A DNA stretch of 63,193 nucleotides, counting the filler, from Hausera hauseri (taxonomy: Eukaryota): the NCBI GenBank assembly GCA_046269625.1. It is 11 parts of 11 records of this genome, joined end to end, with 100 filler letters (N's around TTAATTAATTAA, not from the genome) between each part and the next. Parts side by side here need not be neighbours in the genome. Positions count along the whole stretch, not along the records: positions 23,616 to 27,847 come from JBJURY010621664.1; 10 more parts are not named here. One strand, written 5' to 3'. Below the pieces are notes generated by a model. The model saw nothing but the letters and a program-made list of their open reading frames with translations, ran no database searches and was not told the DNA's origin. Shown here piece after piece: positions 7,411 through 61,150 of the stretch. The position numbers and the translations under genes are program-made. Positions within the stretch are counted from its first letter, which is position 1; each line of letters starts with the position of its first letter.

Positions 7411-7616
7411 AGAAAGACATAGTCTGGTTTATTTGCAATATGTTGATGTAATGTTTTCTACCTTTGTACCCGAAACATGCGTAACGTCTGTGGATAAATC
7501 CAAAAAGACTATCAAAAACACTTGGCCAAAAATTTTAATACAAAATTCGATCATCCGAAAGATATATTAAATAATCAAAATTCGGCGCCGATTTTTACCA
7601 GGCAATCGAATGCCAC

Positions 7617-7975
7617 TGTGACGGTTGGGTTCTGCGACAGAGATGCCTTTACCCCGGTGTTTCGTCGCAGTTGCAGCGTGACCGAGGCACTGACTGTTCA
7701 CCCAACGGCCGTGGAGCAGGCGGCACAACGCTCGGGGTTACCACGCCACGCCTTAGGCACTCACTCGCCCACTGTCTTTTCATTTTTCTTCCAGAACAAA
7801 TATATACACATATATTACATGCACACAAACCGCACTACACCATCTGTATTCTCTTGTCACAAAGAACCTTTCCTTCAAAAACTTCTTGCATCTCAACGGT
7901 TTCATTCTTCAACCCACAGACGACTCACCATATACCACGTGTTTCCAATCTTCTCTTCACATAATAACCGTAACA
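7617..7975 (+). repeat. Probable 5' LTR (or its R/U5 part) of gypsy element 1
   Basis: TGTGACGGTT...AACCGTAACA terminal inverted repeat (9/10); followed by a PBS-like motif and gag. Confidence 0.65.
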
Positions 7976-26271: not shown

Positions 26272-26371
26272 TGTGGTGCCCACAGCGGCCGGTGCCCTTT
26301 GGCCCATTTGGTCGGGCACGGCCGGGCATCCGTTGCCGCCGTGTCGGACCTATAGTCGGGCCCGTTTCTTC
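26272..26371 (+). mobile_element. TGTGG GC-rich element, copy A
   Basis: TGTGGTGCCCACAGCGGCCGG...CGTTGCCGCC...GTCGGGCCCG; aligns with copies B, C, D. Confidence 0.9.
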
Positions 26372-27947
26372 AGCTCTTCCACTATACACGACCAGTTCGA
26401 CAGCATTATACACTCCAGAAGGATGTGATATAAACAAACCTTTACCGCAAATTCCTGAGGAAGACAAAAGGAATTGGACAAGTTAAAAGCAAAAAGCTCC
26501 AATTAATGTTACTCATAAGCTCCATATCAGTCTTTGCACGCATACGGATGAATTTACGGTACTGCCTCAAGAACTGATCTGAATGATCAAAGACAACATT
26601 AGTAAAATCGACGCAGCCTGTAAATGCGATCGCGACGATTCGGTTATTGATTTGAGTACGTCATCGAACAAATCTCCGCAAGTTTCATCTGGTTATACAA
26701 TAGTAAATGATGAGCATTTTGTTATGACAAACGGCAGCGTTAAAATTAGTGTCCTCACTATGAAGGATGTTAAAAAGATCTGTCGTCAAAGCGAAATTCC
26801 CCATTTTTATCGAAAACATCAAAGCCAATAAACCAATAAAATCTCGCTCGAATTCAAAAACCGAAAATTATTCAATAAGTTCAAATGTTTGTCGGTAATT
26901 TAATGGGAAATGATTATTTTTCAGTTGATTAATGCCCTCTGTCGTGTTTGATATTATCTGTCCATGGTATGCTCTCTCCAGGTCCGAGAATTTCTAAAAA
27001 TGGCATCTGTTGTAGTCAGGTTGACTTCTTTTTGCTAATTTCGTCCTTTACAGGACTAGCACTTATTATAACATCTTTACTTGTTTTAATTGTCAGTAAA
27101 AAGCTACGAAATTCAACAACTGACAAAACAACCGATGTTGAATCTGATTGTCAATCGGATGAATTTCCATTTAAAGAACATTATGCTAATACCAAAGATT
27201 TAAGTTATTCGGCCGATATTCAAGTAAATACTACTGACAAACCGTGTAAAAATGAATCAATTGAAACTCAAAATGTCGTTCGAAAGTTGGAAACCAGAAT
27301 ACAATGATAATCGTACAAATCAAAATTTCAAGGCAGAGTGTAACCGAATCAACGATGATCTTTTCAGTTTAGTATATCCGCAATTAGCTTTAACTAATAT
27401 CCTAAATTTACCGACGCAATCACCAAAAGTAAAGCCAACAATTTCCATTACCGAAAACTATGATTACGTCAGTTTTTCACATTCAGAAAGAGATTTTAGA
27501 CTATCCTTCATGCCAAGACTCCGAAATTCCTCTTATATTCACAAGCATCCTGAAACGACCCGACAAAGGTGCTGTTCTGTTAGACGTAGCAAAACTACTG
27601 TGGAATTCATCATCAACTAATACCCAGCCGGTGATAACTGCATTGATAAATTACTCGTTTCAACTTGAGGACAAACGAGTTTGAATACTTTTAATCAGTT
27701 CAAAACATGTTTGGAAACGCAGAAAAATTTCCAAAATCCTGTAATAAACATGCCAATTGTCTTGTCAAGTATTCGCAGAAAATTCTCCTATACTATATCT
27801 ATCTTTTACAGTGTTTGACATTATCGCCGAATAGTGATTTACATTTANNNNNNNNNNNNNNNNNNNNNNNNNNNNNNNNNNNNNNNNNNNNTTAATTAAT
27901 TAANNNNNNNNNNNNNNNNNNNNNNNNNNNNNNNNNNNNNNNNNNNN

Positions 27948-28396
27948 AAAACAACGGAACAAAAAGCAAATGTTGACCAACCAGAAACAAACAACGGACA
28001 GTGTAACGAACTCTATTTTCAACCCTTTAGCTAATTCGACGTTGTCGTTGACCTTAGCCTGAACGGCAATGACCCGGTCAATACTGAACATGAATATTGT
28101 AAGTGACTGGAAAATATCAACGATATTTATACAAAATGCTTGAGTTTCACAAACAGTCGATGAGAAAACTTGTTGTTGGTTTACTGCACAAATCAGAGTA
28201 AAAAACTGGGTGAAAATATCAGCAAGAAAAAAGTACGATAGATTCATAACCACACACGAAATTGATCATCGATACAGCGTCCGGGATTTGAAGAACGTTA
28301 CGATGTAGAGAAGGTTGAATAGAATTCGGAGAAAAATACCGAGAGCTATGGTACTGATACGAATGTAGTAGCCCGTTAGATTGGATAATTGTAGAT
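27948..28396 (-). pseudogene. Class A GPCR-like fragment (TM1-TM4)
   Basis: TM1 with N, LADI in TM2, C at top of TM3, SIDRVIAV (DRY-like); internal stop. Confidence 0.65.
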
Positions 28397-28546
28397 GGGC
28401 AAATCGGCTCCATGCTGTCTCGCGGCAACGTGAACCGGCGCGAGATCCCGGCACGGTCGGGGGCCTGGGACGCCATTAAGGCGATGACAGGCGCGTGACG
28501 CTGCCCAACCGTCCGGCCGCGGAGCATGCAAGCGGTGGGCGCCATA
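28397..28546 (-). mobile_element. Diverged TATGG GC-rich element, copy E
   Basis: Starts TATGGCGCCCACCGC and shares CGTTGCCGC and GCCGATTT.CCC with copies A-D; replaces gypsy RT right after NFLG. Confidence 0.65.
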
Positions 28547-31297
28547 GCCAAGGAAATTTACCTTTTTCTGGAAGAAAGAACATTTAGAATAGTTCATTTG
28601 CAAATTGTAGTTGTGCAAGCGTTGGAAACCTAGTCTAAGATGTTCGTGTTGTTTGGGCGATGCCGATGTGACTAGTATGTCATCGATGTACGGGTATATA
28701 AATGGCAATTTTGAAAGGACTGAATCAATCTGCCGTTGAAAGGTTTGTGCTGCGTTCTTTAATCTGAACGGCATGAATGCGTATTCGAAAAGACCAAAAG
28801 GTGTTATTATGGCCGTTTTTTGGATGTCTTCAGGTGCTACCGGTATTTGCTGGTAGGCTTTTTCAAGATCTGTAGTCGAATAAATTGTGGTCTTGTGTAA
28901 AGAATGCAATATATCCTTAATTAAAGGTAGAGGATAAGCATCCATGGTAATGACGTTATTAAGTTGGCGATACTGGCCGCATGGACGGAATGTGCCATCT
29001 TTTTTGGTACGACGTGGAGTGGTGATGGCAACGGTGATTTTGACCGTTTTATTATTCCAGCTTGCTCGGGTGCAGAGAATTCCGCTTGGACTTCCTGTCG
29101 TCGGCGTGGTGAAAGTGAGCGGAGTTTTTGCCCAACGGGCCTAGAATTTTCTGTGATATGATGAAGCGTCGTGTTAGGCGGTCAAAATGCTGGGTCTTTT
29201 TTATTGTATGAAAACAAGATTTGGTTAAATTTTGTTGCATTTCTAGGCTAACTGTAGTAAGTGCTGTTGTTGTAATGGCAGTGGCTTGATTGGACTTAGT
29301 GTGAGAAACGGTAGTAATCGGGCCGCTTAAATCGGACTTCAACAGAAATGTAGGACTATTTATATTAGTCTTAGTAAGGCTTTTATTCACATTGGTTGAT
29401 GGATTCTTTAATATTGATTTTATAGTCGAGATATGCTGCATGATTGGTTGGTTATTTGTAGAGGTCGGACTATTTATATTGGTATTAATACGGTTTTTAT
29501 TTACGTTGGCTGATGGTTTTTTTAATATCGATTTTATAGGCGAGTTAAGCTGCGCGATCGGTTGGTTATTTGTAGAGGTAGGCTTTGTTGAACTGCTTTT
29601 AATGATCCGACATTGTCTACAATCTACAGGGAGGTTGTATCAAGATAAGAAATCAGATCCGAGTATTGGAGATTGTGTGTCGGCAACGATGAAAGTCCAA
29701 TTACAAATGTCGGAGAATGGTGGTAAAGTGAATGAAACCTTGGACGTGCCGAATACTTGTAAAGCTTGGCCGTTTGCTATGTACAGTTTAGTTGAAGTCG
29801 GTGAGGTAATAGATATTTTGGTGGATATTGGTAGAAGAGATACTTCTACTCCGGAATATATCAGAAAGGTGATTGGGTGATTAGACTCGGTGGAAATGAA
29901 GGCATTTAATGTGAAGACGGCATTCGTGCGGCTGTTACAATGACGAGGATAGCCTTTGCCAGCATACGCCGGAACATCTGGCGGCTTTGTCAGTTCTTTT
30001 GGGTGGACAGATTTGAGGAGTCGGGAGAATTATTATGGAATTGGTTAAGTCGACTGGAAAACGTGCAACCGTTGATGCAGTTTTGGGCTTTATTGCTGAA
30101 CCTATTATGGTAAATACAAACAATTTCAGATTTTTGAAAAGCGGGTGTAAAGAATTTACACCTCAAGCAACATTTGTTGGATTGGTCCTTGAATTTAGTG
30201 TGATAATAGCACACCACAGGTCGAGTAGTGGAGCTAGCGGATCTTGAATTTTGCGATGAAGCACGGCTATTATTGGGTGTGAATCGACCTTGTCGCGGCA
30301 TGGATAAATTGTCCAGTTTAGAAGTTAAAGCAGAAATGGCTTGGTGTATTGTCGTGTTTTCAGCCCGGAGAGCGTTTATTTGGTTATTAAGCACTAAGAT
30401 TTCAGCATTGGGTGGTGTCAAAGGTGGTTGTAATGTGTCTGCGACAATTAGAGTATGGTGTGTATTTAATATTTCATAGCTTTTATCAGCCAGTTGTGCT
30501 AACTTTTCTAACGTAGCGGTGTCTTTAACGACGGTTAGTAAAGCACGTATTTCTTTCGGCAACGATTTGAGGAAATATCTGCGCAATGAATCGGCATTGT
30601 TTGTCTGGTTCACTCCTAACTTGTTTAATTGTGTTTTTGATTTCCTATTGTGTTGTCGTTAAAATATTTGTGGATAATATTATCCAGAGAAGGTTCCGTG
30701 ATTTTTAGGATCGAGCTAAAGAGTGTCTTGTACAGGTCACCGCTTTGGAAAATTTCCGACAAGTTGGAAAGTTGTGACTTAATGTTGGAAGGCTTTGAGA
30801 AAAGAGTCGACAATATTATTCGACTTCAACCAAGCCGCATGAAAGTCCAACCACGTCCGGTTGGAATGTTTGTCAACGAAGTATTCTACGCAAGGTAGGT
30901 TTACAGTAGACGGTGGAGATAGAGGTGAATTTAGCGGTACACTTATAATAGGAATGTCGGCAAAGTCTTGTTGGTCCTTAGAAGACGCTTTTGGATTGGA
31001 TCCACCTAACAGACTGTAGTGTACAATCAGTATAGGTGTTGAAGACGAGCCGGTGTAATTTGTTATAATGACGGATTGTCGAAGTAAAGTCCGTTAAATC
31101 TGAAACGAAAATTAGAAAGAGTCGTTTGTAGTTGTAACATGCTTAACAATTTTGCAATTGTTGCTAATTTGTCAATGTAATAGGTTTGTGCATGCTTATT
31201 TTCGAATAACAAGACAAGTGGGACGAAATTATCACATAAGTCGGGTGTTCAGTGCGGTGCGTAAGACGGGCGCGCCCAAAATCCCTGCGATGTAACA
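28547..31297 (-). mobile_element. Ty3/gypsy element 2 (5' region, gag, protease, RT), truncated in RT
   Basis: gag with two CHCC motifs, DAYPLP, DLEKAY, TPFGLFEY, YIDDIL; paralogous to element 1. Confidence 0.92.
29353..29580. repeat. About 114-bp in-frame tandem duplication in the protease-RT linker
   Basis: ggactatttatatt at 29353 and 29467; encodes IKSILK.PS.NVNK twice. Confidence 0.8.
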
Positions 31298-31619
31298 GTC
31301 GATTTGCGCGACCTGAGTGGTAAACATTAGAAAAGGCGTCCTGTTTGGTTGATGTTTGACGTCGCTTTCCTGTAAACTTGGTAAATGTCTTTCCATAAAT
31401 TTCTTCTGCATCGATTCAGCCGGAATATCTCCGACCGACGATGTAGTACTGGGATGTTTACCACTGGCATTAAGGTAATTCTGGGGAAATTGTGAACTGT
31501 TGTCAAAATACTAGTCAATCAATTCTTCGGATAAAATTTTATATGTTAATAATTTAGTAGATTCATTAACATATGTATGACAGAAATATGACAAATTCAC
31601 TGACCTTTTTATGTATACT

Positions 31620-32200
31620 TTTTAAATCTTCTGAGACTCCAATGATAGACTCCGACAACGGTTGACATAATAATGCATGGTAATTGATGAAGAAATCAGG
31701 GAAATCGTGCAACAATAAGAACGTTGTACTGACAGCGCTCTTGTAGACTATTTGAATAAGTTTTTGTAGGTGATTATCGAGATACGGATGTAGAAATGAG
31801 AATGGATTGCAAATTGCTTGTAGAATTCCTGTGTGTATTCCATTGTTGTACTATAGAGCACTTTGGAAATGAATGATCGATGGGAAATGAGTTCTAACCA
31901 TAAGAATACTAATGATGGAGCACATTTTGGTCTTCTGACATTAAAGGTATGTGCGAATGCAGTCAAAGCATGATATTGGAACTCGACCATTTGTTCGTCA
32001 TCAACAAGGTGATGTCTATGACATTCGTGAATGAGACTACATACTAACATTGCATAAGCATCAATTTCCATATATCCGGCACTACGGTTTGCTATGAATG
32101 ATGATTTCAATTGTTTATGTGCTCTATCAACAACGTACATTAATGCTAATCGTAGGAATTTCTGAACGACTTCAGCGATGATACTCGTTAAACCATCTGT
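31620..32200 (-). pseudogene. CNOT1: CNOT1 C-terminal domain fragment
   Basis: IDAY..LV, AF...F...RP...P...F.WLELISHR.FI, LLLHDFPDF...YH. Confidence 0.8.
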
Positions 32201-32849
32201 GAAATATTTATTCTTTGCTTTGCCATCTTTGCTTAGGTCGCTTTCAACATTGACACTTATGAACTTTCATCAGATAAAATACGAGCAGTATTATCGTCAC
32301 TAAGTGCTACAGGTGACAGATTCATGATGTCTAGATCACTAAGTGATTTACTCCAACTATCATTCATTGCATATTCATTTCTCTTTACTATTCCAGTGTA
32401 CTTCGCATATTCCTATACTTCAGCCATTTTCAATTCACTGACACTCACATCGCTTGACTTGAATCTGGATCTTTTCGTTGCTCTGCTGTTGATTTTCGTC
32501 GATTCCGTTTGTAGGTAAAATTCCAAGGACCGACGACTTCCATAAATATTCAACGAGGAGGGACTAGCGCGCATGGCAACGAGTTCTTCACAATAAATTG
32601 TCGGGAGTCGTTTGCAATGTTTGGAAATTTTTGAAACAGATTGTTTTATCACTGGACGATGAAATTTGGCGATACGAGAGCTTTCCTTGAGAGATAATTG
32701 TGAACCCTTGTTTCTATTTCTATTAGACTTAATTAACTCGACGGTGTACACCTTATCGTTATTCACGTCATTCATGGCCATGTAGAAGATTTCATGTGGT
32801 GCTATTTTACAACCAATTCGTTCAACTCGACTAATTAAATCAGTTTCGT

Positions 32850-33390
32850 CGTTTCCTATTTCTCGAAATAAGTTTCTCTGACAGACTCTTAATTTTTTTG
32901 TCTGGAACCGTTTATCAATCATCTTTTTTTCAATATCCCCATCGCAGTATGTTTCGTCCTTTACGTGCAATGCCGATCTATTGGAAAGTTTATATTCGGT
33001 GACAAACTGCTTCTCGGATTTCGTATTGAAACTTTCATAAAATGATGGCATCTTACTAATAGAAAATGGATCTAACGTATGAAATGCATTGTCGTCCCTT
33101 TCAATACTTTCAACATTACTCGTTTCCTATTCGTCGAAATAAGTTTCTCTCACAAACTCTTAATTTTTTGTCTGGAACCGTTTATCAATCATCTTTCTTT
33201 CGATATCCCCATCGCAGTATGTTTCGTCCTTTACGTGCAATGCCGCTCTATTGGAAATTTTATATTCGGTGACAAACTGCTTCTCGGAATTCGTATTGAA
33301 ACTTTCATAAAATGATGACGTCTTACTAATAGAAAATGGATCTAACGTATGAAATGCAGTGTCGTCCCTTTCAATACTTTTAACATTACT
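32850..33390. repeat. About 270-bp tandem duplication (2 copies)
   Basis: Units start cgtttcctat at 32850 and 33121; the same peptide SFYESFNT.SEKQFVTEYK appears in two ORFs. Confidence 0.92.
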
Positions 33391-33544
33391 CGAACTATGT
33401 AATACGTAATCTTGGTCACCATCAGATAATTTCTGGTAGTGTATTAAATATTTTGACGGTACAGATTGACGATTTTCTACCTCAACAGACATGATAGTAC
33501 CAGTCACCTGTCTGCCATATCTAACGAAAGTCGGTACACTATAT

Positions 33545-33984
33545 ATATCTTGACCTAACGAAAACTCCTTTGACATCTGAAACCGACAAGACAATTTTGA
33601 ATTAGATGCTGTAAGTTCCTGACTGGTAGAAAATTTGTTTTGTCGTGGAAAGAGACGAAACTTGTTTAGACTTGTTAAAGGAACATCTAGATTTGTGCAC
33701 GATGTTCCTTTATCAAAATCATACACGTCGGTATCAGACAACACAGGCTTAACACGAAATTTCTGTGCGAATTCCTCATACTTTTCCAAATCATTTGAAG
33801 TTTGATTTTTTTTCTGTAAAATGAATTCCGTTAAATTATCAATGTTATCGTTACGTGGTTCGATGATTAATCTTCGAGCAAGGAACCAATAGGTATTTAC
33901 AAATCGGTCATAACCCAACGGAGTTTTCTTGTGTTCCACCAGAGCTTTTTCTCCATCTAAATTACTTTCGTACAATCCGACAAC
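33545..33984 (-). pseudogene. BPTF: BPTF/NURF301-like fragment, fused downstream to a chromo/Tudor-like piece
   Basis: PLGYDR....YWFL.RR.IIE and F.LGQ motifs; then KYLIHY at about 33435-33455. Confidence 0.6.
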
Positions 33985-34929
33985 NNNNNNNNNNNNNNNN
34001 NNNNNNNNNNNNNNNNNNNNNNNNNNNNTTAATTAATTAANNNNNNNNNNNNNNNNNNNNNNNNNNNNNNNNNNNNNNNNNNNNTACTATCGAAAATTAG
34101 TTGGAAACCGTTGAGATGTTTCTTTCCAAATTCTTCTGGAAATTTAAAATTTGGAAGCGCCCCCTCCCCCCTAAAATGAGAGCGTCGCCCTACATTTCTT
34201 CTGAAATCCATCTCGGAGCAGGATTGAGTAAATATTTCAACTTATGTGTACCACCCGCAAGTAAATATAGCCATTCCGCCATATCAATTTTTCTTTTCCG
34301 AAAGACTGACAAACATAGGAATAAAGACTGAATGTGAAATAGTCGTTGATATTGTCAATTCTGTCAGTAGGAGCTTCGGCTTTTGCAGCATTTTAATACC
34401 ATTTTGGAAAATGTTCAAAAACCATTCCAAAGACTGCTGATACATTGGATCTATTTTAGCCAAATCGGAAACAGTCTGACACCAACACGTATCTATTTTA
34501 CCATGCTATACATTTAATAAAAATAATATTTTGCTATCTTCATTTGTCTAGGCACTATAAAAAGCTGCAGATATCCATACATTTAGACATTTACTTACAG
34601 CTAAAAGACTTTTGCGAGTTTCATTTATAGCTCTCACCATTTCCATTTTGTTCCTCTGTAAAGTGAGCATTGCAGTAGTAAAACATTGGTAAAGTTTAAT
34701 CATATGTCAGATCATTTACTCATAGTTAATGATATTACAATCTGACTACCTCTTGAGTGTGTGATTTACTTCATTTTAGTCTCCATTCATCTAGTTTGGT
34801 TTATTTTAGTCAAACGGTCAATGTCATTGCATACTACAGCCAGAAATGAATGCTCCAGTGTCGTTCATTATGAATAATCTCAACTCGGTGCATGAAATCC
34901 ATTGCATCAGCAAGGGCCCCCTTCTGTTG

Positions 34930-35030
34930 GGTAGATTTATTTTTTCTAGAATTTCACCAGGCAGCCTACTCATTTCAATTTCCAACTGACATGGGATTGT
35001 TTACGTGCACGACAATGTACATAAAATAAA
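34930..35030 (-). mobile_element. Partial SINE copy (Meta-like core)
   Basis: Reverse strand TGTACATTGTCGTGCACGTAAACAATCCC matches 16160-16190. Confidence 0.7.
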
Positions 35031-35939
35031 GAACATGCAGAAAAGGCGCATGGAGTAAAGATGTCAGCAAATTTAAAAACAAAATGTTAGAGAAACTTTG
35101 CTGAAATTTTTGTGTTGTTGGTAAACGCACTGAAAGAACGCTGAAAATAAATTTTGATTTCTTTTTATTGGTTTTATAATTGTGCACACGTATATTCGTT
35201 GTTACAATGCATGAATGACAAACCAAAGGCTTTAAATATAGCAATGTGAGTTCAAAACTAAAACCTCCAAAGGACTGAATTATGGATTATAAACATTGCA
35301 AAAACAAAATGTGCCAGTTCTATAGACAATTAGTATATTATAAGGACCAGCATATGCAACAGCTTTGATTTAGCGGTATAACAATGTTCTTTGTTCGATA
35401 TCATCATATTGTATCTCTCGTCATTATTTGTGTATTAGATAAGCGTCACATTTAAAAAGACAACGTCTTGGCTGCCGAGATATACAACAAGGTTCACAGC
35501 TGGGAAAATTGTACGAAGACTGGCTACAGACAGAAACAAGTTACAGCATGGACTATTACAAAACAAAGAGTGAATACTTCGAAACAAAGTGAGACAGGAA
35601 AGTCGTTAGAATACCATGGACCAAAAAAAAAGAAAAAAAAGATACTATAAGAGCTAAACGTAACAGGAAAAATAGTACATGAAGAGTATGATGTCTTGAA
35701 ATCTGGAATAATTTTGATCACCATATACATTCTGAAAGTCAAAAACAGAATAATGATATGGTTCATGGAACACGAGGCACAGGTCAAAGAAGACACTGGA
35801 TATAAGACATCAAAGGTACTCTAAACGTGAAATTAATCGATGCAGGCGAACTAATAAGAGAAAGTTTTCTGGGTGCGTTGTGATGAGTGCGACCTTACAG
35901 AAAGGACATGCCACATGATGATGAAACTACAACAAGCAT

Positions 35940-37427
35940 TTAACTCATCATGCCATCGTCTTGTAAGAAAACCTCCATCTCTCCACTGGAACTCTTCACA
36001 CAGCACAGTTTAATATCATTAAGAGAAATATGAGAATATATAAGGTCATCGTCTCGAAGGGTCAACGTTTCGTCTTTTAACTTAGACACGATTTTATCCT
36101 TAATCTTCTGGGGTAATGGAAGCTTGCTCACTCGTTGATCTCGACCGGGATGTATGCCAATTGCAGATGATACTGTCATAAATGTCAGCTGACAAAGTGA
36201 CACTGGTTGTGAAGAAATGTCATTCATTAATGTTATCAAATCCTCGTTTTGATAACTTTGAACAATGCTTCTTACAATGAGCTTCTTACAGCTCGTCCAG
36301 GACATATCAGATACTGTCTTTAAGTCATTTTCGCTGAGGTAATATGCCAGTTCTACATTCCCAGCTAGTAATGCCATACATAAAGGGGAAATCGAAAAAT
36401 CTGTTTCCACCACATCTCCTGTCAAAACTGTCTTTGCCTGTACATCAACAAGTGGCATTCCAGCTCGAACTAATTTCAGAATAACATTTGTGTAACCTTG
36501 AAGGATTAGTTTATGCAGAATGATTGGTTCAAGGAACGATACATCAGCACCTCGATCCACAAAGCATTCAATGCAGTGGGCAGTATCTCCACCAATGTAT
36601 GGGTTCTCTAGGAGATACGAAAGAGCGGATTCTGTTTTGTTTATTTGGTTAACAGCTTTAACATTACACCCTGCATCAAGTAACATCAGCATTGCTTCTT
36701 TCCTGCATTTTTTAGCTGCCAGCATCAAAGGAGAGTAACCATCAATGTTCTGGCAATCCAGGTCACTTCCTGCACTAATCAGCTCTGTCAGAAGTGATGG
36801 TAATGGAAATGTAAATTCCAAAGCGCGCATTAAAGCGTTGTTACATTTGATATCTTTCACATTAACATCAGCGCCTGCGGTTATCAGTTCTTCTATTAAT
36901 ACGTAATTGTCACTATCCACAGCATACATAAAGGCTGTGACTCCCTCGATGTTTTGCTGATTAATATACTCCTTGCTCTTGGCTCGTTTAATTAAAAACG
37001 AAACGTTACTGTAACAGAAATGCTTCACTGCCAGCATGAGAGCCGTGTCTCCATTGACATCTTTGTCATTCATTTCAGCCCCATGGTCTAGCAGAATCCG
37101 CAACAACTCCACGCTGTCATCCCTAGAAGCTGCTATCATTAAAGGAGTTTCCAGATTTTGACTTCTTTCTCTGACTGACGATCCAAGTTTTAGCAAAGAT
37201 TCAACTCTTCTTCCTGCACAACGGTCGTATCTGTGTATCGTCTTTAGAAACTCAATCATAGACAGGGGACAGACGATGCTATTTCTTGTCACAGGACTGA
37301 TATCTGTTGTGACAGGAAACTCTTCATATTGCATCTTTATCAGAGATAAAGAACAACATTCTGGCGCCAAGTAACCGCTCTGAGCTGAAGGCTTGTGTTG
37401 ACTTTCTTGTGAGATTTCAAATTTCAT
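35940..37427 (-). CDS. Ankyrin-repeat protein with C-terminal SOCS-box-like motif, single coding exon
   Basis: 495-aa open frame; TPLMIAA, G.TALMLA, G.TAFMYA, GYSPLMLAA repeats; SLCQL....V......V.KLPLP..IK. Confidence 0.85.
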   Translation of the reverse strand: MKFEISQESQHKPSAQSGYLAPECCSLSLIKMQYEEFPVTTDISPVTRNSIVCPLSMIEFLKTIHRYDRCAGRRVESLLKLGSSVRERSQNLETPLMIAASRDDSVELLRILLDHGAEMNDKDVNGDTALMLAVKHFCYSNVSFLIKRAKSKEYINQQNIEGVTAFMYAVDSDNYVLIEELITAGADVNVKDIKCNNALMRALEFTFPLPSLLTELISAGSDLDCQNIDGYSPLMLAAKKCRKEAMLMLLDAGCNVKAVNQINKTESALSYLLENPYIGGDTAHCIECFVDRGADVSFLEPIILHKLILQGYTNVILKLVRAGMPLVDVQAKTVLTGDVVETDFSISPLCMALLAGNVELAYYLSENDLKTVSDMSWTSCKKLIVRSIVQSYQNEDLITLMNDISSQPVSLCQLTFMTVSSAIGIHPGRDQRVSKLPLPQKIKDKIVSKLKDETLTLRDDDLIYSHISLNDIKLCCVKSSSGEMEVFLQDDGMMS

Positions 37428-38844: not shown

Positions 38845-39209
38845 TTTGTTTTAGTTTGGTTTAGTCGATGGATCAATATGTTCGCACACGGATATGTATC
38901 CTTTCTCCTCGATTCTGGAGGATCTCAGCTCATGTGGCTTACTCAGAACCCTGTAGGTTGGGTAGATTTTTCCTAGAATTTTACCCGGACAGCGGCCCTT
39001 ATATCCTACTATTTTCGATTTCCAACTGTCAAGGGATTTTTAACGTGTACGACAATGTACACGGATCTTGGATCTCACTACCCAGAGACCAGGGGAATTT
39101 TTTTGCTAGAAGATCCAGGAGAAGAAATCTCATGTGCTTCCTCTTGGATTTGAACGCCATACATCTAGCACTCGAGGTGGTCGTCTTACCTCGAAACCAC
39201 TGAACCCCC
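38845..39209 (-). mobile_element. Near full-length copy of the same tRNA/Meta-like SINE
   Basis: Collinear with 16030-16400 including the AAACT-type tail. Confidence 0.85.
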
Positions 39210-41741: not shown

Positions 41742-42014
41742 CGCAGGTTACCCTCAAGGTGGCAACGATTATAAGCAACTACGATTCGATGCATCATCAT
41801 TCATTTATTCATTCATTGAATCATGCCTTTCAAACGTAGTCATCCTTACTTTATTGCTTTGCTTAAAGCATCGTCGAGACATAAACGGAACATGCTGCGA
41901 TTATTTCCACAGTTTGTAGTAGACTATTTGATGGAAATTTTGTACAATATCTTTGTGGGTCACGTTGACATTGATAGTGGAAAGCGGAATTTACTAAAGT
42001 ATCGAAAACGACTC
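41742..42014 (+). mobile_element. Polinton fragment (small conserved genes), cut at TGTGG 42015
   Basis: MPFKRSHPYFIALLKA... homologous to 56045-56308 (-); similarity stops at aaaacgactc|tgtgg. Confidence 0.85.
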
Positions 42015-43408
42015 TGTGGCTTTGTTTGATAAAATATCCACCGATAGAGAATAAACGGTTTGAGGTTTAAGTCAAAAAAAAGTCAGCCATTGATAATAAA
42101 ATTCTATTATAAAAAAGTAAAATCCAATTTTAAATCACAAGTTTAAAAATTTGATCCAAGGAAAATATCGGATAACGTTCTAAGCTTAAATCCAATATGT
42201 AAAAAAATGGATAATAACGAAAATCAAATTTCAAAAGCTGCATTATCCTGTATTTATTAAAACAATTTTTTCGTGATTTAATGGCCGGTACAACAGATTA
42301 TTTTTGCAATAATGTTACACAAATGATAAAGTCCAGAAAAGTCATATATGAAAAAAAATAAAAAAATAAATAAAACAACAAGTATAAAAATGACAACTAT
42401 TATATATATTACCTTCACACAATATGCCAGTACTTAGTTACAAAGATCATATTGACAACAATGATGGTGAACAACAATATCTTCAAACAGATTTTGAACC
42501 ATACAAGAAACACTGCAATTCAGCGACTGACACGTGTTCCAAAACACTAATTGCCGTATGTTATCTTTTATAGCCTACCGCTGGAATAAACCAACACGAT
42601 TAACAGCTGGACTTTACACTTTTAACGACAAGGCCATGGTGCATAACCGACTGATTGCAACGAATTGAATTGAATTTAAAATGCAACTGATTGTCAGAAA
42701 AATCAATAAGAAACCCAATTCCCGACGGTGTTTCATAAACCTTAGAATCAACAGTGAAGTTAAGAATTACACATTGTCAATCTCCATTTATGGAAAATTT
42801 CGAAATGCTGACGCCGCAAACTCATAAGTGCTATTTATAATGTTAAATTGTCAATACTTGAAGAACCATATATCTACGATTATTTGAATGGTTTGCTTTA
42901 TTTGTCAAAGTGCCATGAGCAAAATTTATGGATCACAACTTCCGGAATCGTTTCTTGTGTTTGTAGATTTTGGACACACATTGGTACGAATACTTGATCA
43001 GTCAACGCGAATCCTCGTTTAAATGAATGAAAGAAAAGAGATTTGTTATTCTGACATCGACGGAATGAGTCGCCATTGATGGATGAGGAGCGCGATAAAT
43101 CAGTACAACTGCTGGCTGGTGTGTGGAGAATACTGGACTTGCTTGTCGATGGTGATGATATCAATTTTTGTTTGATTTCCTGTTGTTCCTCGGGTAGACT
43201 TATTTTCAGGAGTATGTTGACGATCGTACAGCAGATCCATTCACGGATAAGGGGGTGGCATTTAAGACTCTGCAATATCTTGTTGATAAGGGGGCTGATC
43301 ATTTTCATGGCACTGGGTGATGTTGAACTGGTGATAAGTAAGGCAATGAGATTTGTCAATTCGTCTGTTGACACAATAGGTTTGTATGTCGATAAATTTG
43401 TTACTGGC

Positions 43409-43501
43409 AAATCTCGAGGCGGGAGATCGGGCCTGACGCGGCGGCAACGGATGCCCGGCCGTGTCCAACCAAACGGGCCAGAGGGCGCCGGCCGCTGTGG
43501 C
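43409..43501 (-). mobile_element. TGTGG GC-rich element, copy C (outermost about 7 nt missing)
   Basis: CCACAGCGGCCGGCGCCC...CGTTGCCGCCGCGTC.GGCCCGAT; directly follows the 3' UTR of gypsy 3 on the same strand. Confidence 0.9.
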
Positions 43502-46500
43502 AAAGTGAAAATTATAAAGGGTAAAAGAGACAGAGAAAAAAGGGCAAAACTGAAAAGTGTGTGTCAATCGGTCTTAGTGTGGATAAGACTTTGGGTGCCT
43601 TCTAGTGATTTTTCCCTGCTATACTTGCTGAATGTGACTCTGCGTGTTTTGTCTTTGGGCGGTGTGTTTGCTTAAAGAGTTTGAAGTTGGGGAAAAATTG
43701 TCGAATTTTGTTGTAAGTGTTGTGTCGTGCAAAGATAAGTCAGCGCAAAGAGAAGGAGAAGGTGAAGGAAGAAAAGAGATTGTTGAAGACGGATGATTAA
43801 AGGTGTTTAAGAAAGTGTTAGAAGATGGAGGAGTGATAGAAGGTGTAGTGGCGGATAAAGGGAGAGAGAAAAGAGTTAGAGTAGAAGTTGGAATTGAATT
43901 GTGTGAAGGAGTGGAAGTGGAAGATGAAACAGAAGTAGTAGTAGAAAGGGGAAAAGGGATAGGGAAAGAGGTAAAGAGAGGAGAAAGTTGTGAAACGGAA
44001 GTGAAAGGAGTAAAAGATGATGTGTTAGGAGAAAGGGGGGAGAAAGCGTCGAAGATGAGGAATGTGGGAAAGAGAGGAACAGAGAGAAAGATAAGACGGG
44101 GAAGAGGTATAAGGCGAAGGACAGCGAGAAGATGGGGAAAGCAAAGGAATGTAGTTGGAGGGTGGTGTGCAAGAGGTTAGAATGATGAAAGGTATAGATA
44201 GAGAAATTGGTGAAGTCGAAATGGTATTTGATGGAGGGAGTGCGGTAAAAGGAGAAAGCAGGTTGTTATAATGGGATGAAGGAGGTTTTGGAAGGCTTGA
44301 AGGTGCAAAATCGGATGGGAAGAGAGAGGCTGAATTGTGAGAAGAAATTGGAGTGGAAGTTTTGGGAGAAAACGCGGGGGAAAGTGGATTAAGACATTGA
44401 GCAGAGATGGAAGGAGAATTGTTGGACTGCTGAGCGTCACATGAAGATGTTGGTGGAGAAGTGGTTTCGATGGGAGACGTTTCGTCAATGAAGAAAGCCG
44501 GATTAGCATTATTGATGTGAACGGTTACTTCTTTGTCGTTTTTGAGAGTGAAGATATTGTGCGAGTGTAAACGAATTACTTTGTAAGGGCCGACATACTG
44601 AGGTTGAAAGCCATACGGCGTCTGATTCTTTAACCAAATGAACTTGGCAGTATATAAATTGTCGGGAATGTAGAGTTTATTTGCGTTTAATAATCTGCAA
44701 AATGAGTCTTTGCTGTTCTCAACGAAGTGCCTCTGTGCCGCTTGTATGGTTTCGTCTGTAGGAATATTGTCCAGCTCAGTCAGCTCGAATAATGATTTGG
44801 TGGAAGTGCCAAATAATGCTTTTGCAGGTGAACTGCCTGCAGAAGTTGATGGTGTGTTCCGCCAGCCAAGCAGAACGTACGGAACGAGTGTGGTCCAACC
44901 GCGATTGGACTTAGCAAGGATTTTGAGAGACGTTTTCATTGTTCGATGAAAGCGTACGAGAAGGCCGTTCGATTAGGGATAATATGGTAATGTGTGAATG
45001 TGGTTAATTCCCAATCGATTGATAAGAGCTTTAAACAGGTTCGATTCGAACTGTGGATTTTGCCCGAAATAATGTGGTGAGGTGATCTAAACCTGCTAAT
45101 CTAAGTGCGGATGAAAACGTCTGCGATGGTTTCTGTGGTGGTGCTCCGAAGCGGGACAGCTTCTGGCCATCGCGAGGAACGGTCCATCATTGTGAGGGTG
45201 AACTGATGGGCGTTGTCTAAGGGTAGTGGGCCTACAAGGTCAATGTGCACAGATTCAAAACGAGACGTGCAGGGAAAATGAAATTGTGGTGGCTTTAGAT
45301 GCTTAGTAACTTTGTATTTTTGGCATGCCACACACTGCCTAACCCATGTCTGAACGTCAGAGTGCATCGACGGCCATACTACTTGGCTTTGTAAAAGTCG
45401 AAAAGTGGCCTTGGCACCAGGATGATGCAACGAATGTACGCTGTGGAACGCTTCCTTTTGAAGAGACTCAGGAGGAATGACTTTAGGAGTATTAGGTTTG
45501 GAGGTGTCAAAGGCCACACCGCCAATGGTTTTGCAGGATTTAAAAGATTTAAGGATGTCAGGAGGTGGTTGGTTTGGCTGAAGTTTGGACTGAGGAAAAT
45601 TTGGTGTAAAATCAATCGAGCAGATTGATCTGGACAAAAAGTCAGCTACTAAATTGTCGACCCCGTTTAAGTGCTTAATTTGAAAACTAAATGTTGACAA
45701 ATACGATATTTGCCTCTCCTGACGTTGAGAAGGCAATTTCATGGTGAGAATTTGGAGCAAGGGCTTGTGGTCCGTTTGTATTGTAAAAGTTCGTGCAGTT
45801 AGCAAATGTTTAAAGTGTATTACGGCAAAAACCATTGCAAGCAGCTCTCTGTCAAAGGTGGAATATCTTTGCTCTTGTGCTGTGAATTTGCAAGCAAAGA
45901 ATTCCAATGGATCATGGGATCCATTTTTAACTTGATGGAGGACAGTACCTGCAGCTGTTGTGGATGCGTCGATGGTTAAGAAGAGTTCTGCATGGGAGTC
46001 TGGATAGGCTAATATTTCGACAGTTTTTAAATTGTCTTTGAGGTGATCAAAATCATTGACTAGATTGGTGGTTTATTGAGTAGGATGTTTTTTCTCGCCA
46101 GAACTTAGTGATGCAAATGGATCGGTTAGAGTGGGGCAATGCGGAACGTACTTGTAAATAAAGTGCAAGGTTCCGAGGAAAGAATGCATCTCTTTTGATG
46201 TACGTGGTAGTTGTATGTTTTTGAGCTGTGTGTTGTGGTCTGTCTGAAGTGAATGTCCGGAGGAGCTAATAATATGTCCTAGGAAATTGACCTTATGTTG
46301 AAAAAAGGAGCATTTAGAAAAATTGATTTGCAAATTGATTTGGTGTATGCGCTGGAAAATTAGATGTAAGTGTTCAGAGTGTTGTTTCAAAGAGGATGAT
46401 GCAATTAAGATATTATTAATATAGGGATAGGCAAAGTCTAAGCCTAATAGGACTGTATTTATATGCCTTTGGAAGGTCTGGGAAGTGCTACGGAGTCCAA

Positions 46501-47240: not shown

Positions 47241-48520
47241 AAACCAGCTAATAGAGAAATACTTTGCATAAAGGCTAGTCGGAAACTCCATTTTGAATCA
47301 TCGGCTAGTTCAATGATTGCAGGAATGAGATTTTGACTGGCCTGTTTGGCCCCAATTACTTAAGAAAGACAATCTAGTTTCGATATTAAATTGAGACGAA
47401 CCTCTGCATTTTCATCCTTTAATTGAGTAAGAAAAATTTGTAAAATATGTTCAGTTGTGCTGTATTTTTCAACAATTGGGGATAAACCTAACAAGACACC
47501 AGTAAGGCTAATTTTCAATTGAATATTAGGATCATTGATTATATCTTTCACGATTGGAATGAATGGCTTCACAGTAACGGATTTCCTAATGTCTTTTGGT
47601 AAACATTCACAAAAATCTTTTAATTTCCCAGCAGCAGCTGATTTCACTTCTGCTTGCGAGCCTTTCAACAGAATTGAATAAACATCGACTAGTGCGTTCT
47701 GGACCAAATCAGCGCCGATCAACTTTTAGATTTCTATTAAATTTTCAGTAGCAGCGTGTTGAACACGCCATGATGTATCTTCTGTGCCTCCACTAAATAA
47801 ATGTATGGCAGAATTTTTTATATCATCTTTGGGAAACACTTTGCAAAAACTAACACAAGAGGATACACCTAATTGTCTGAGAGAATCTTGCTCATCCTGA
47901 GCAATTATTGGTAGCAATAACAACATGTCGGATTTTACATGCTCCAAATCCATAGCGAAAACAAATTCACCAAGACGATAAGCAGCCGATCGCCGAACCA
48001 TAGGAATGTCGTCTTATGCCAACGGTCGAAAAAGTCGTCGTAATTCAGTTTTCAACGAATTCGGCAAACGTGCATAACAAACACTAAGTAAACCACAAGC
48101 CGATGATCGACTAGTAAACCATTCACCAGAACTCAAACATCGTATTAATGGAACAAAATGTTTTCCTAAATCCTGTGGAGTATGATTGGCAGCAATTATT
48201 TGGAGTGAATCCACTGCTTTATCACGTACCACAGTTTGTTCAACAGCAGCTGACGTTTCAAGAGGTGGCAGTAAACAATGCGAATATTCTGGACCACCAA
48301 CCAACGGTACAAATGCACCTAATTGTTCTGCTAATGCCAATAATACTTCATCTTCATCATACACAGTGTCTGTTAAAAACGGAATTAATTCGTTTCGAGT
48401 CCTTTCCATTCCAAGGGCCAACGCAACAGTAGGAAGCTTTTTAATACTTATTAATCGCGTTTGAATATCATCGTTTCTTAACTCATCGATTAAAACAGCA
48501 ATGGGAAAAAGATTATCGTA
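47241..48520 (-). pseudogene. PPP2R1A: PP2A scaffold A subunit pseudogene (HEAT repeats), no introns seen
   Basis: [67 protein letters not shown]; in-frame stops at about 48014, 47726, 47360. Confidence 0.92.
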
Positions 48521-49467
48521 AGAGTGTTAAAAATTCGCAATGGAAAGAAATATGAATGTTACTTTTGTGAAAAAATCCTTGTCCGTGTGGCCCGAAATAA
48601 ACGAGTGAAGTTCCTTCCCATGTTTTATTACTTCGGTTCTCTAACGTAACAAGTCTCGCCTGAATATCATTATTTGAACTGATCAGTTGTTAAATTTGTA
48701 TCTTCAATTTTTTACGAATGAGTGGATTTGGTCAGTTTCAATTTCTCTTTGTTGTTGTTGTTGTTCCTCTGGAATTGTTTCCGAATTGTCTATATTTTCT
48801 TCCTTACTTTTAAAACTTTTATCTCTTGGCGATTGTCCGATAAAATCCGTAGTTCATGATACTATTTTAACTCCATCCGAGGGAAATTTGTTAAAATGAT
48901 TGTCGTTTCCTATCTCAAATGACACTTGATAATTCTCTAACGTGCTGTTAGCAGAATTCGATATGGAATATCTCATCCTTTTTCTAACTGGTGAGTGTCC
49001 AGAAATTTCGGAGTCATTGTGACATTGATGAGCCGAACTATCACCCAATATTGAGTCAAAGCACCTCGGAGAAATTTGGAGTTCATTTCAGTGGAGGTAA
49101 TAATCGCATTTTGACTAACGTATTCAATAGTGACTAGGTGCTGTCGTGATCTTTTGGGTAGCCTTTAAACATATCTTTTAGAATACATTGCCAGGTATTT
49201 GGGAATTAAAAGTTGTCCTGATCTTTGCTCAATGTCCACGGAAAATTTTGTCTTTTGCTGGTCATTCATCAAAATTTCCGACTTTTGCATGGAAAATTCG
49301 TAAGAGTCGCTAGTTAAAATTTTCATCGGTAAGCTTGATGAATTTATTAGGTTTCTGATAACGGATAAGAACAGATTGAGAATTTTGTACAGATGAGCTG
49401 ACTGAATCGATTGATTCAGATTTGGGGATAACGTAAAACATTCTTCCCCGTTCATGTGTAAGTAAGT

Positions 49468-49589
49468 CATCTTGTGAAATTTTCGCGGCGGGAAATCGGG
49501 CCCGACTATGGGCCCGACGCGGCGGCAACGGACGCCCGGCCATGTCCAACCAAATAGGCCAGAGAGCGCCGGCTGCTGTGGGCACCACA
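49468..49589 (-). mobile_element. TGTGG GC-rich element, copy B (122 bp)
   Basis: TGTGGTGCCCACAGC...TCGGGCCCATAGTCGGGCCCGA...ACAAGATG; outer end abuts pPolB. Confidence 0.92.
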
Positions 49590-52368
49590 ACCTTATTTGT
49601 CTGGTAAGTCCTATATTCCAACACCTGAAGCCTTACGAAATGCAATGGCCGTTATTAACATGCAGAATGAAGACAATTTGTGTTTCTTGTACTCCGTTCT
49701 TGCAGTTACCAAATATTCACTTTTTGAAACTCATAAGAATAGAAATAGAGTTAGCAGTTATACTCCTTACTTAGGTGAGTTTCAATATTCCTAGAATGAC
49801 ATGCCTACGACAATATGTAACATTGCTAATTTTGAGAGGCAGAATCCACAGTTTTCAATTAATGTATTTCTGTTTCACGATGAGGATGATGTGGATTTCG
49901 ATGTAGATATTGTAAAAAATTTATTCGTTGATATTTTGTATAGAAGCAAAAATCCGAATGGTTCTGTAGTTATCTTGCTGATTTTGGAGAATGATGATCA
50001 CTTTCACTATGTAGCTGTTCCCAATCTTAAACGAATTTTGAATATGCGCGGTAAGAAACTACGTATTCAATGCAAACATTGGTGTAACAAATGTTTACAT
50101 GGCTTTAGACTATACACTGCTTATGCTAAGCATTTACCAATGTGTATGTCCTCTTCCAAGCTCATGACTTTGTACAAAATGCGCGAAAATAAATTTTGTG
50201 AATTTAAGGACAGGGCCAAATTTATAAGTCCTCCTTTCGTCGTATATGCTGACTTTGAGTCTGCCCTTTGCCCTGATGACAAAGTTAAACATATTCATTT
50301 GCCTGCTTCAGCAGGTCTCTTGTTAGTGTCTCCAACAGGTACTGAATATAGGCAATTTGTAGGTGAAAATTTCATTGTTCAGTTTCTGGCCTGTTTGGAG
50401 GAAATTGTTAAGAAACTTGTTTTCCCATGGTATGAAAATGCGAAAAAGCAAATGATCCCGTTAACACCAGCTGAATGGTTTCAGTTTAAAAACGCCACAT
50501 CATGCTACTTATGCCATGAAAAGGCACTACATTTTTTAGAGATCATTGTCATGTTACAGGTAAATTCTTAGGCCCTGCTTGCAACAAATGTAACTTAGCA
50601 CGACAGATTAGATTCACTTTACCTGTTATGTTTCATAATTTGCGTGGATATCATCTTCGTCATATCTTTAAACACGCATTGAGTAAATTCAGCGGTTGGG
50701 AGTTAAATGTTATTCCACAAACGACTGAAAAATTTTTGACTATGTTTGCCATGATAAGATGTTCGAATAAAAGGTCTGTTACTGTAAGATTTCTAGACAC
50801 TCTTCGGTTTTATAGGCTTCATTAAAGATCTTAGCCTTCAATTTACATAGTTACCCATTTACAGAATCGACTTTTCCTTCGGATATGATTAGGGAAAAAG
50901 GAATTTTTCCATACACTGCTGCCAATACATTCAGCGACTTGCAATCGATTACTGAGTTACCATCAAAATGGGATGGTGTTATTGATAGCGATTATGCGGA
51001 AGCACAACTTACTTGGTCCAGATATACGTGTAACAGCCTTTTAGATTATATGTTGGTATACATGAAACTTGATGCATACTTGCTAGGTGATATTTTTGAA
51101 CGGTTTAGAAAGGAGTTTAAGTTGCAGAATGGTTTAGAGGCGGTTAACTATGTTTCAATTCCTGGTTTATCTTGGGCGACAGCATTAAAATCAAGTCCTT
51201 GTTAGATTGAGCTTATACCGGATCCTCAGATATATCAGTTCTTTCAGTCGGGTATTCGCGGTGGCATGACTTTTGTTAATAAGCATAGGGTTGTCTCTGA
51301 TGAAAGCACAAGTTTCTTGTATATTGATGTAAATAATTTGTACGGTTGGGCTTTATCTCAACCTCTGCCATTTGCGAATTTGGTATGGATATATGATGAG
51401 GACAAATTAAATAGTTTAATTGAACGAGGCTTAGTGTTTGACGTAAATTTAAGCATTCCGGCTGACAAACATGATAAGTTGAACCAACCGCTCTAGCTCC
51501 AATTAATAATTGTCATCCTGGTTCGAAAGTCCAACTATGTTGTTCACTATTGGCTCTTACAAGTGTACATCGAGTTAGGTGCAGTAGTTGAAAAGGTTCA
51601 TCGGGCCGTTGAGTTGACCAGAGATGTTTTCAAGGATTATATCGATCTAAATACTGCAAAGAGGGCTGCAGCAAATTATCTTTTTGAAAAAGACTTTTTA
51701 AGCTTAAGAACAACGGCTTATATTGCAAAACAGTCGAAAATTTGCTAAATATGTCAAACCTGAGGCTGTGAAATAATGCTAAAGGCTAGTTACATATGCT
51801 AGTAAGGCCCAGTTTAAAGAGAGTATTATTATAGATAATAACCTAGTTGCCGTTCTCCTCGATAAAGATATGGTTACATTAGATAGACCCTTATACATCG
51901 GTCAGGCCGTACTTGATCTATCGAAGTTACGGATGTATGAACTGATTTATATAAAGTTGGAGACATAGGCAACAATTTCAGTGTGAACGTAATATTGTTG
52001 CTGGCGACACAGACAATTTTTTCATCGAATGTTGTGATGTTGACTTAAAATCACAACTGTTACTGGCGATGATAACATACGAGCACTTAGATACGTCAAA
52101 CTATGACAAAACTGATCCGCTGTACTCGACTCGTTTTTCAGCTGTAATTGGGAAATTTAAAAACGAGAGCAAGGGCTGCGATCAGTATCAAGAAGAGATT
52201 TTCCTACGGCCGAAATCCTATGCCTTCAAAACTCAAACCAAACCAGCCCTCAAATGCAAGGGCATAAATCTCAATCAGACAGACTTGCGGTTTAGTAACT
52301 ACCTACAGGCTTATGAAACTGGTTGTGGGACCATGGTGGACCAGGAGCAGTAAAATCTACAAAATTAT
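49590..52368 (+). pseudogene. Polinton/Maverick protein-primed DNA polymerase B, decayed
   Basis: YADFES, FHNLRGY, KGIFPY, Y..LD..LL, IRGG, YIDVNNLYG, GDTD, GKFK.E, LRPKSY, KCKG. Confidence 0.95.
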
Positions 52369-59517: not shown

Positions 59518-59639
59518 TGTGGTGCCCATCGCGGCCGGTGCCCCTTGGCCCATTTGGTTGGGCACGGCCGAGCGTCCGTTGCCGTCGCATTGGATCCATA
59601 GTTGGGCCCGATTCTCCGCCTCGAAAATTTTACAAGATG
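59518..59639 (+). mobile_element. TGTGG GC-rich element, copy D (122 bp)
   Basis: Collinear with copy B from TGTGG to ACAAGATG. Confidence 0.92.
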
Positions 59640-60759
59640 GACGTGTTGCCTATCTTAAGAAGTTATGTAAACGGCCCGATTAGACAAGCTTTTAAATAAT
59701 ACTAATCACAAAATTATGGAATAATTCTTAACAAAATCTATTCATTGAAAAGAAACCACCTAAATTGTTAAATGCAAACCGAGACGTCTGCGATTATTCG
59801 TTAAAAAATCAGTTGATATACGGTCGTTTTCAACGCCAACTGACAAGATAATGCTCAAAGGTAACAAAGATAAAAGGCATAATAGTCATTTCGACGATAA
59901 TTCAGTGATCAAACCAACCATCAGTCTGCAATAGATTCTTTCAAACTCTATTCTAAGTTGCCATTCCAAGCGCAGTTAATTTTGAGACAATTTAAATATC
60001 ACTGAAAAGGAATTATTTTATTATAAGTAATTCCGGTATTCCTAGTTCTACAACAAAACGTATGGTAATGATGGTTATATCAACAAATTAATTTACAAAA
60101 TTCTCAAATTTCCCCTCATATATCGAAATTGTCCAGCTTTTGGCACGCGAAAAATCGACAGAAACTTACGCTTACTACCAGGAAAAGTGTTTCTGGCAAT
60201 GTTACACCAATTGGCAGTCCCGTTATACCAAAAAGACGTTATCGAAACTCCAACAAAACTAATTACTGACATTGATGTTACACTTTCACAATGATTTTAC
60301 GTTCGCTCTTACTCATCTGGATTTTCAGTCTTTATTGGGCCAACAGTTTCGACAATACACAGCATTTACATCTGGCAGTCAAAATTCCGTCGTTTAAAAA
60401 CCGATCGCGTATCTATCAAGGCTGTTTAAGAGTTCCAAGATATTTGTGTATCACTCATAAATGTCACAAGTTATTCTGAAAATCGTTTCACCGTATCAAA
60501 ATGAATCTGACATTTATACAGTTTTAAATCCCAAAAGTGAAAGCGAAATTGTTATTCGGAAAATATCTCAGTTATTGATCATAGCAATGGGAAATAATTT
60601 CCAACTTTCCATACTGACCAAATGTCGAAAAAAGACCAATTGACAATTTATTTCACGATATGCCGAATTTGCCCGGTGTTACGGCTGAACATTTTATAAT
60701 GGAGGAATGTTGTTGAAAAAGAATACATTTTTTGAAATTTTTCAAGCCATATTACAAGA

Positions 60760-61150
60760 ATTTGTCTTTTGGAAAGTTCGATTCAAATTTTTTAGACATT
60801 GTAATTGGAAATTTTGAATTTCTACTGTTCTTAAAGAAATTTTATCCTGAAAATTTCGCCAGGCAGATTTAGTACAGCAAAGGAATATATCAAGAGATGA
60901 TAAACATTCATGGATGTGGCGGTGGTCGTATTGCGTCGACAATTGGACAAAAAAAGATATGCCTACAATGCAAATCCTTCCAAATGACAAATAACTTTCC
61001 AATTTTCTCATTATCTTTCCATTCTACACCGTCTGCCTGAGCATCATACAAGAGATTAAAATCATCAAATCTTGCGGGATTGCCAGCATGCCGCTTCAAA
61101 TTCAACCCTGCATATATCTGAGTCTTTTCTTGTTCCGATCAACATCTAAA
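60760..61150 (-). pseudogene. Possible retrotransposon gag relic
   Basis: F..F....A....W.D.EK..KL..L.G.A pattern across a frameshift. Confidence 0.3.

Follow-up and report, generated by a model that had tools for sequence, protein, structure and literature searches.

Introduction

Does a short GC-rich sequence that heads unrelated host-gene pieces in several contigs of one animal genome mark the end of a gene-capturing mobile element and, if so, of which kind? Here, we analyzed a stretch of 63,193 nucleotides, filler included, from Hausera hauseri (GenBank assembly GCA_046269625.1), referred to as the window, which comprises 11 contigs of 4.1 to 8.7 kb joined by spacers. This animal DNA contains much decayed Polinton and gypsy sequence. 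Gene capture by animal transposons has mostly been reported as scattered cases, such as 15 fly retrocopies (PMC5131818) and 370 Pack-TIRs over 100 genomes (PMC8277862). Five of the nine contigs that are apparently of the host carry the terminus and two more carry mosaics of two genes, a sign of capture on a far greater scale. Decayed copies inflate the numbers of genes and of single-copy markers counted in such a genome.

Gene capture has already been published for all three kinds of element that the earlier note had put forward (gypsy LTR, Pack-type, and Helitron), and the unit described here works like known gene-capturing elements. If its cargo does lie inside an LTR, the arrangement is one not found described in the literature searched, where no account of host mRNA mosaics inside an animal LTR was found (Repbase and most subscription papers fell outside the search).

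A GC-rich terminus family

Copies of a GC-rich sequence had been noted at 26272 (+), 49589 (−), 59518 (+), and about 43500 (−). All four were recovered on separate contigs, 83 to 91% alike by self-BLASTN, and a profile built from them finds each at E values of 1e-26 to 1e-38, with nothing else below E 18. The supposed length of up to 122 bp agrees with the 122 bases (101/122 identical) common to the copies at 49468..49589 (−; BLASTN, profile, and run X1 contigs) and 59518..59639 (+; BLASTN and profile), both of which end in ATG. The copy at 26272..26368 (+; BLASTN and profile) starts with TGTGG and holds 97 bases of family sequence, and that at 43400..43504 (−; profile) has a 12-base internal deletion. 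A sharp TGTGG end, said to mark the family, is present at the same start base in three of the four copies but not in the fourth, 43501, which starts at family position 6 to 9. The copies are indeed GC-rich (61 to 70%, versus 33 to 41% for their contigs), and the five terminus sites, including the diverged one considered below, make up five of the six GC islands of the window.

The terminus varies like noncoding DNA, with 21 variable sites falling 9/6/6 on codon positions and 20 transitions. One of its frames is open in all four copies (26274-26483, 42901-43563, and 49168-49599 among them), with no start codon before it, and is in frame with the PAK-like piece described below and, in two other copies, with the longest frame of the interior. 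The terminus matched no Rfam family and no tRNA, and it folds no better than shuffled sequence (z of −1.7 to +0.2).

A fifth, diverged copy had been claimed at 28546 (−). BLASTN and the four-copy profile both miss this site, at 28410..28546 (−), but a global alignment anchored at the end is equaled by only 2 and 8 of 1,000 shuffles. Local alignment to the family is not significant (38 to 319 of 500 shuffles), and without the first 12 bases the anchored alignment falls to 57 and 125 of 1,000. The site is one of five within two mismatches of the terminal 12-mer among 126,406 positions, and the match falls where reverse transcriptase (RT) homology stops; the TAT of its TATGG start could be part of an RT codon. 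It is also a GC island of the same layout as the family copies and ends in ATG, as do the two full copies (three of five in all). Judged from these sequence features, it is probably a distant relative of the family.

Target DNA outside the terminus

As the earlier note held, the terminus cuts Polinton PolB twice, at 49590 (PolB piece 49590..52368, +; Pfam DNA_pol_B_2, E 1.4e-10) and at 26271 (25400..26271, +; tblastx to the PolB of contig 9, which starts at 49590, E 2e-38), at different codons in contigs 5 and 9. Gypsy RT is likewise cut at 28547, the outer end of the diverged copy (28547..29140, −; Pfam RVT_1, E 5.6e-26), and the 59518 copy in contig 11 cuts a coding-like stretch with no assigned family. 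Outer flanks are transposon-coding at three of the four intact ends and inner flanks at none of five, and on none of the five inner sides does PolB or RT resume. Across six flanks (four window ends and two joints from run X1) there is no common target motif, no CCGG or CCGT, and no full match to RTATAY, with one flank partly alike; the base outside the terminus is T in three of the six, and TTTT is absent. We found no usable target duplication, only a chance-level 4-mer, and no copy has both ends intact. Because the target never resumes inside and there is no usable duplication, the terminus does not qualify as a simple SINE, MITE, or short solo LTR, as had been argued.

In contigs of the public run X1, the same end base meets PolB at two further positions (49589 to 50451 and 49590 to 50897). 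Record 4 of that run covers 49357-49589 with 40 differences in 233 bases and is another copy with the same interior, so that the terminus and the first 111 bases of the contig-9 interior are linked in a second genomic copy at 83% identity. Run X1 may be the source of the window, and its contigs represent other loci rather than an independent sample; run X2 gave no further joint at the terminus. Because of the two further PolB joints, one with the same interior, the terminus end is a true insertion boundary that travels with its interior.

These observations also bear on a reading as a common short repeat with two ends (SINE, MITE, or short solo LTR), in which later deletions or misassembly made the flanks differ. 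The contigs are of short-read style, 4 to 9 kb, in a very repeat-rich genome; the inner ends of two copies look fixed (...ACAAGATG); and no contig among those of run X1 listed bridges the window's own joint at 49589. Yet the longest exact match between copies is 25 bases, the outer and inner flanks differ in kind, PolB and RT do not resume, and end and interior occur together again in the second copy. We consider a short repeat or misassembly highly improbable.

Polinton PolB at 49590-52368 has a summed contig depth of 37,000 to 413,000 in run X1, versus about 7 for single contigs, and on this basis Polintons seem extremely expanded in the host genome.

Interiors derived from host genes

The inner end was said to vary and to lead into unrelated host-gene cargo. 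The common sequence does stop 97 to 122 bases in, and no two of the five interiors are related, but cargo could be identified in only three of the five copies. These three are all sense and start near the protein N terminus. A codon score favors sense in the first interior window of all five copies, with small margins in two.

The interior of the 26272 copy (26370..27847, +) carries a PAK-like CRIB/PBD at about 26496-26609 (Pfam PF00786, 22.6 bits against a cutoff of 21.3), in frame with the open terminus frame, followed by ORF pieces to the contig end; all six PDB matches are PAK1, PAK2, or PAK4 (E 0.09 to 0.66). This cargo is new here, an addition to the earlier identifications. At the diverged copy, the interior (27948..28409, −) resembles a decayed class A GPCR from the N terminus to past TM3. 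A GPCR fragment had been claimed among the interiors, and all four PDB matches are class A receptors (E 0.06 to 0.27), but the likeness is weak, with a Pfam E value of 0.005 that falls below the cutoff.

The third identified cargo belongs to the 49589 copy. There, about 940 bases of frames lead, as described before, to a copy of the PP2A scaffold subunit A (PP2A-A; 47243..48517, −; tblastn), which begins at residue 9 of the reference and runs for 425 gap-free codons, 77% identical to protein P0002. This copy has three stops, all TAA, and no frameshift. The ORF pieces before it (48530..49467, −), whose first 111 bases are those linked to the end in record 4 of run X1, gave no Pfam match and no relatives. 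At the 43500 copy, the interior holds an open frame of 171 codons in frame with the terminus (42901..43413, −); searches with this frame and with a 101-codon frame found no relatives. A likeness of 42459-42866 to the N terminus of BEACH proteins was considered but not supported: there was no Pfam match, and all four large-library matches were repeat-rich proteins. The interior of the 59518 copy (59640..61000, +; right limit approximate) is weakly sense by codon score for its first 600 bases, and the score turns antisense beyond about 61100.

Summed contig depth in run X1, which by the tool's own warning is no copy number, steps down into the contig-9 interior (318, 98, 74, 54, 36) and rises to 221 over the PP2A 5′ end, versus 21 to 76 over the PP2A body. 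The bin at the terminus reaches 91,052, which is not the copy number of the terminus, as 45 of its 171 bases are PolB. Read with that limit, the depth profile suggests nested subfamilies and more copies of the PP2A 5′ end than of its body.

That the terminus is the fixed end of a larger mobile unit with swapped host DNA, as had been proposed, is borne out by the differing host-derived interiors, by a target that does not resume, and by the recurrence of end plus interior at a second site. We regard it as very probable that the terminus is a real mobile end with subfamily-specific host-gene interiors.

A fixed 5′ part, a variable inner joint, and sense, intronless cargo are also what a non-LTR chimera would give, in which template switching or trans-splicing attached a small RNA, a SINE head, or a spliced-leader-like RNA to the 5′ ends of host mRNAs and a LINE enzyme inserted the product. 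LINE-type insertion leaves ragged 5′ ends, however, and the TG ends here are base-exact at five sites. The lack of an Rfam or tRNA match also speaks against such a chimera, as does the missing poly(A) tail at the single candidate far end described below. Three of five copies end in ATG, like flatworm leaders, but those leaders measure 31 to 36 bases, not 120, in the published report (PMC12582326). This origin appears very improbable.

A candidate far end

A single observation provides a candidate for the other end. At 42015..42020 (+), contig 8 reads TGTGGC (GCCACA in the direction of the element), about 1.5 kb from the 43500 copy. The motif directly follows a small ORF piece (41742..42014, +; BLASTN) that is 81% alike to 56041-56306 and that we take, by name, to be of a Polinton family. 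This small ORF is cut exactly at 42015, and its frame continues past the same point in contig 10 (56041-56306). With the terminus, the motif would give TGTGG...CCACA, an inverted repeat of only 6 bases. TATAAA and AATAAA motifs lie between the two, and the right part is AT-rich. No GC-rich inverted repeat, hairpin, or poly(A) tail was found at 42015, and the stretch 42015-42900 has no second copy in the window. Motif counts put the chance occurrence at an estimated 1% per junction, with about 10 junctions examined; the left flank does not restore the target, and the matching end of the 43500 copy is damaged. Elsewhere, no contig contains an inverted partner of the terminus, no primer site follows the 122 bases, and no direct-repeat pair around an internal region occurs within the 0.6 to 3.7 kb available inward, the contigs being too short for large elements.

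These results can be compared with a Pack-type element that moves by cut and paste, like GingerRoot/IS3EU or Ginger2. In such an element, the 100 to 120 GC-rich bases would be one terminal inverted repeat of a pair, between which host fragments, or retrocopies made earlier, would have been captured as DNA. GingerRoot occurs in animals and has 100- to 150-bp inverted repeats with TA..TA or TG..CA ends, lengths of 3.9 to 12.9 kb, and gene fragments (PMC6839031). By that published description, the TGTGG/TATGG pair and the length of 97 to 137 bases fit its left ends, and elements of this size exceed the room in our contigs; the antisense score of contig 11 beyond 61100 is what might occur toward a second end. 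GingerRoot/IS3EU also has a 100- to 150-base terminal block and little target preference, but its gene fragments retain introns and lack a 5′ bias, and it has long inverted repeats at both ends (PMC6839031, PMC10045372), unlike the gap-free, sense, 5′-biased cargo seen here. This comparison is by published description. The candidate far end, moreover, has no GC-rich repeat, no matching transposase was seen in the window, and half of the interiors would be expected to be antisense, whereas three of three identified and five of five scored are sense (P = 0.125 and 0.03). Ginger1 and Ginger2/Tdd resemble the terminus in their TGTNR start and in a terminal repeat length within range, but the published targets, CCGG/CCGT for Ginger1 and RTATAY for Ginger2, are those missing from our flanks (PMC2836005). 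The Pack-type proposal of the earlier note fails for Ginger1 and Ginger2 on target preference; as a GingerRoot/IS3EU-like element it is the main rival to the LTR origin discussed below, and we judge it unlikely.

The remaining proposal, a Helitron2-like 5′ end with one-ended read-through capture of downstream genes, fits poorly. Helitron2 has a 5′ T, a possible 5′ hairpin, and one fixed end (PMC3627910), and Helitrons are described there and in PMC6431247 as carrying same-strand multigene cargo. The terminus does start with T, and TGTGG-3-CCACA could form a terminal hairpin of five pairs in two of the four copies with an end, but this shrinks to three pairs in the other two, and folding is no better than in shuffles. 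The T outside the end in only three of six flanks, the lack of a T-rich target such as TTTT, and the missing hairpin after the candidate far end are further differences, and capture by this route would retain introns. This alternative is quite improbable.

A possible gypsy-type LTR with captured cargo

The start of a gypsy LTR fits best of the candidates put forward, because target DNA lies outside, sense, 5′-biased, and gap-free cargo lies inside, the TG end is exact, and the candidate far end has a short repeat. We estimate the probability at roughly 45% that the terminus is the start of a long gypsy-type LTR into which reverse-transcribed host mRNA was switched after about 120 bases. The terminus would be the left end of a long LTR-type unit (the putative start of U3 and integrase attachment end) belonging to a nonautonomous retroelement. 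During reverse transcription, the enzyme would leave the element RNA, copy a copackaged host mRNA toward its 5′ end, and rejoin the element RNA about 100 to 120 bases from the LTR start. Cargo would thus come to lie inside the terminal repeat, sense and intron-free, and repeated switches could string several genes together. Each version may then give rise to a subfamily through RT and integrase that a presumed helper provides in trans, integrating with TG...CA ends and little target preference.

Several observations favor this LTR origin. The sharp TG end occurs at independent sites and moves jointly with its interior; all three identified cargoes are sense from near the N terminus, and PP2A-A has no gap in 425 codons. 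A TGTNR start is the pattern of gypsy LTRs and Ginger according to Bao et al. (PMC2836005) and is present in three of four family copies and at both run X1 joints. Two-gene mosaics occur elsewhere in the window, and the one candidate far end gives TGTGG...CCACA. Multiparent chimeras, template switching, and secondary spread are described as features of LTR-mediated retroposition in PMC5131818. The depth peak at the PP2A 5′ end, although depth is no copy number, is what captures that stop at mRNA 5′ ends would give.

Against the LTR origin, a purine tract upstream of the terminus is absent in five of five copies, and there is no R-U5-like shared right part, though other copies run 1.6 to 3.7 kb inward. 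With the purine tract missing, none of the copies is seen as the 3′ LTR of a complete element, and all would be 5′ or solo LTRs. The window's three gypsy elements have LTR-like ends of their own that are unrelated to the terminus (141 and 40 of 200 shuffles), and therefore no helper was identified. Gap-free cargo does not by itself prove an RNA step; a P0002-led search found no parental PP2A-A locus. We make no family assignment, which would turn on the far end, the target duplication, and the enzyme, and the gypsy LTR is a candidate only.

Among known systems, LTR-mediated retroposition (Tan et al. 2016, PMC5131818; maize Bs1) is alike in that partial, intronless mRNA pieces of several parents are reamplified by a nonautonomous LTR element. 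It differs in that the retrocopy there stands in place of internal ORFs, flanked by two intact LTRs, whereas here cargo starts 97 to 122 bases from the terminus, no primer site intervenes, and a second LTR is not seen. The giant gypsy elements Burro, found in flatworms, and Ogre have kilobase LTRs and host-like domains, but these domains sit in internal ORFs, and nothing ties the terminus to these elements (PMC6431247). A broader proposal, which we hold to be doubtful, is that a gypsy lineage uses its LTR as a swappable cassette. An unchanging left end of 120 bases, closed by a start codon, would head mosaics of the 5′ parts of host mRNAs, and the many nonautonomous subfamilies of the lineage would litter a giant, Polinton-rich animal genome with intronless multigene chimeras, some of them in frame with the reading frame of the element.

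Other mosaics and gypsy elements in the window

At 5600-7615 (+), a decayed NMD3 piece runs straight into a KDM5 piece (from JmjC onward) on the same strand; no introns are seen, and the LTR-like start of a gypsy element cuts the pair at about 7617. A WSD-motif piece with a 270-base tandem duplication is followed at 31298-33984 (−) by a Not1 piece on the same strand, cut at about 31298 by another such start. These head-to-tail mosaics look like the same kind of cargo; the terminus is absent from both contigs, and a search with Not1 found no relatives.

Candidate gypsy LTRs of 300 to 350 bases lie at 7617-7970 (+) and 31000-31298 (−) and can be aligned with each other (0 of 200 shuffles). That of contig 2 runs TGTGACGG...CCGTAACA and is followed by a decayed primer-site-like motif. 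We assume that these elements belong to clade CsRn1 and that the motif is tRNA-Trp-like. The 43500 copy was considered as the 3′ LTR of the adjoining gypsy and rejected, as the LTR-like ends of the window's gypsies are different and that element's own 3′ repeat is placed upstream by a weak match (8 of 200 shuffles). A tandem array of 114-base units lies at 29350-29582 inside a gypsy pol linker.

Host and a probable second organism

CpG is not depleted in nine contigs (observed/expected, 0.90 to 1.26) and is depleted in contigs 3 and 7 (0.56 and 0.66). Because of this depletion and a repeat common to the two, they probably come from a second animal. These contigs (13756-19173 and 34085-41641) include one with an intact ankyrin-SOCS frame of 501 codons, and one element in them is presumably, by name, L1/Tx1-like.

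The PP2A-A copy is about 70% identical to the proteins of named animals. In a tree built by a quick method, which carries a warning of long-branch joining, P0002 pairs with a trematode on long branches; a flatworm-like host would be a lead only. Pattern and protein-led scans of contig collections found no relatives, and no locus was retrieved when PolB, gypsy pol, and P0002 served as protein queries. The terminus pattern had no matches in viral contigs and none in metagenome contigs; a shorter pattern retrieved three viral loci, which we rejected as chance matches in GC-rich DNA.

Further features of the window include an imperfect, MITE-like palindrome of 464 bases at 169-632 and a tandem array of 67- to 69-base units at 53527-53826 in a Polinton-like contig. 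An open frame of 589 codons at 2502-4271 (+) has a likeness to what we take to be a hAT-type transposase.
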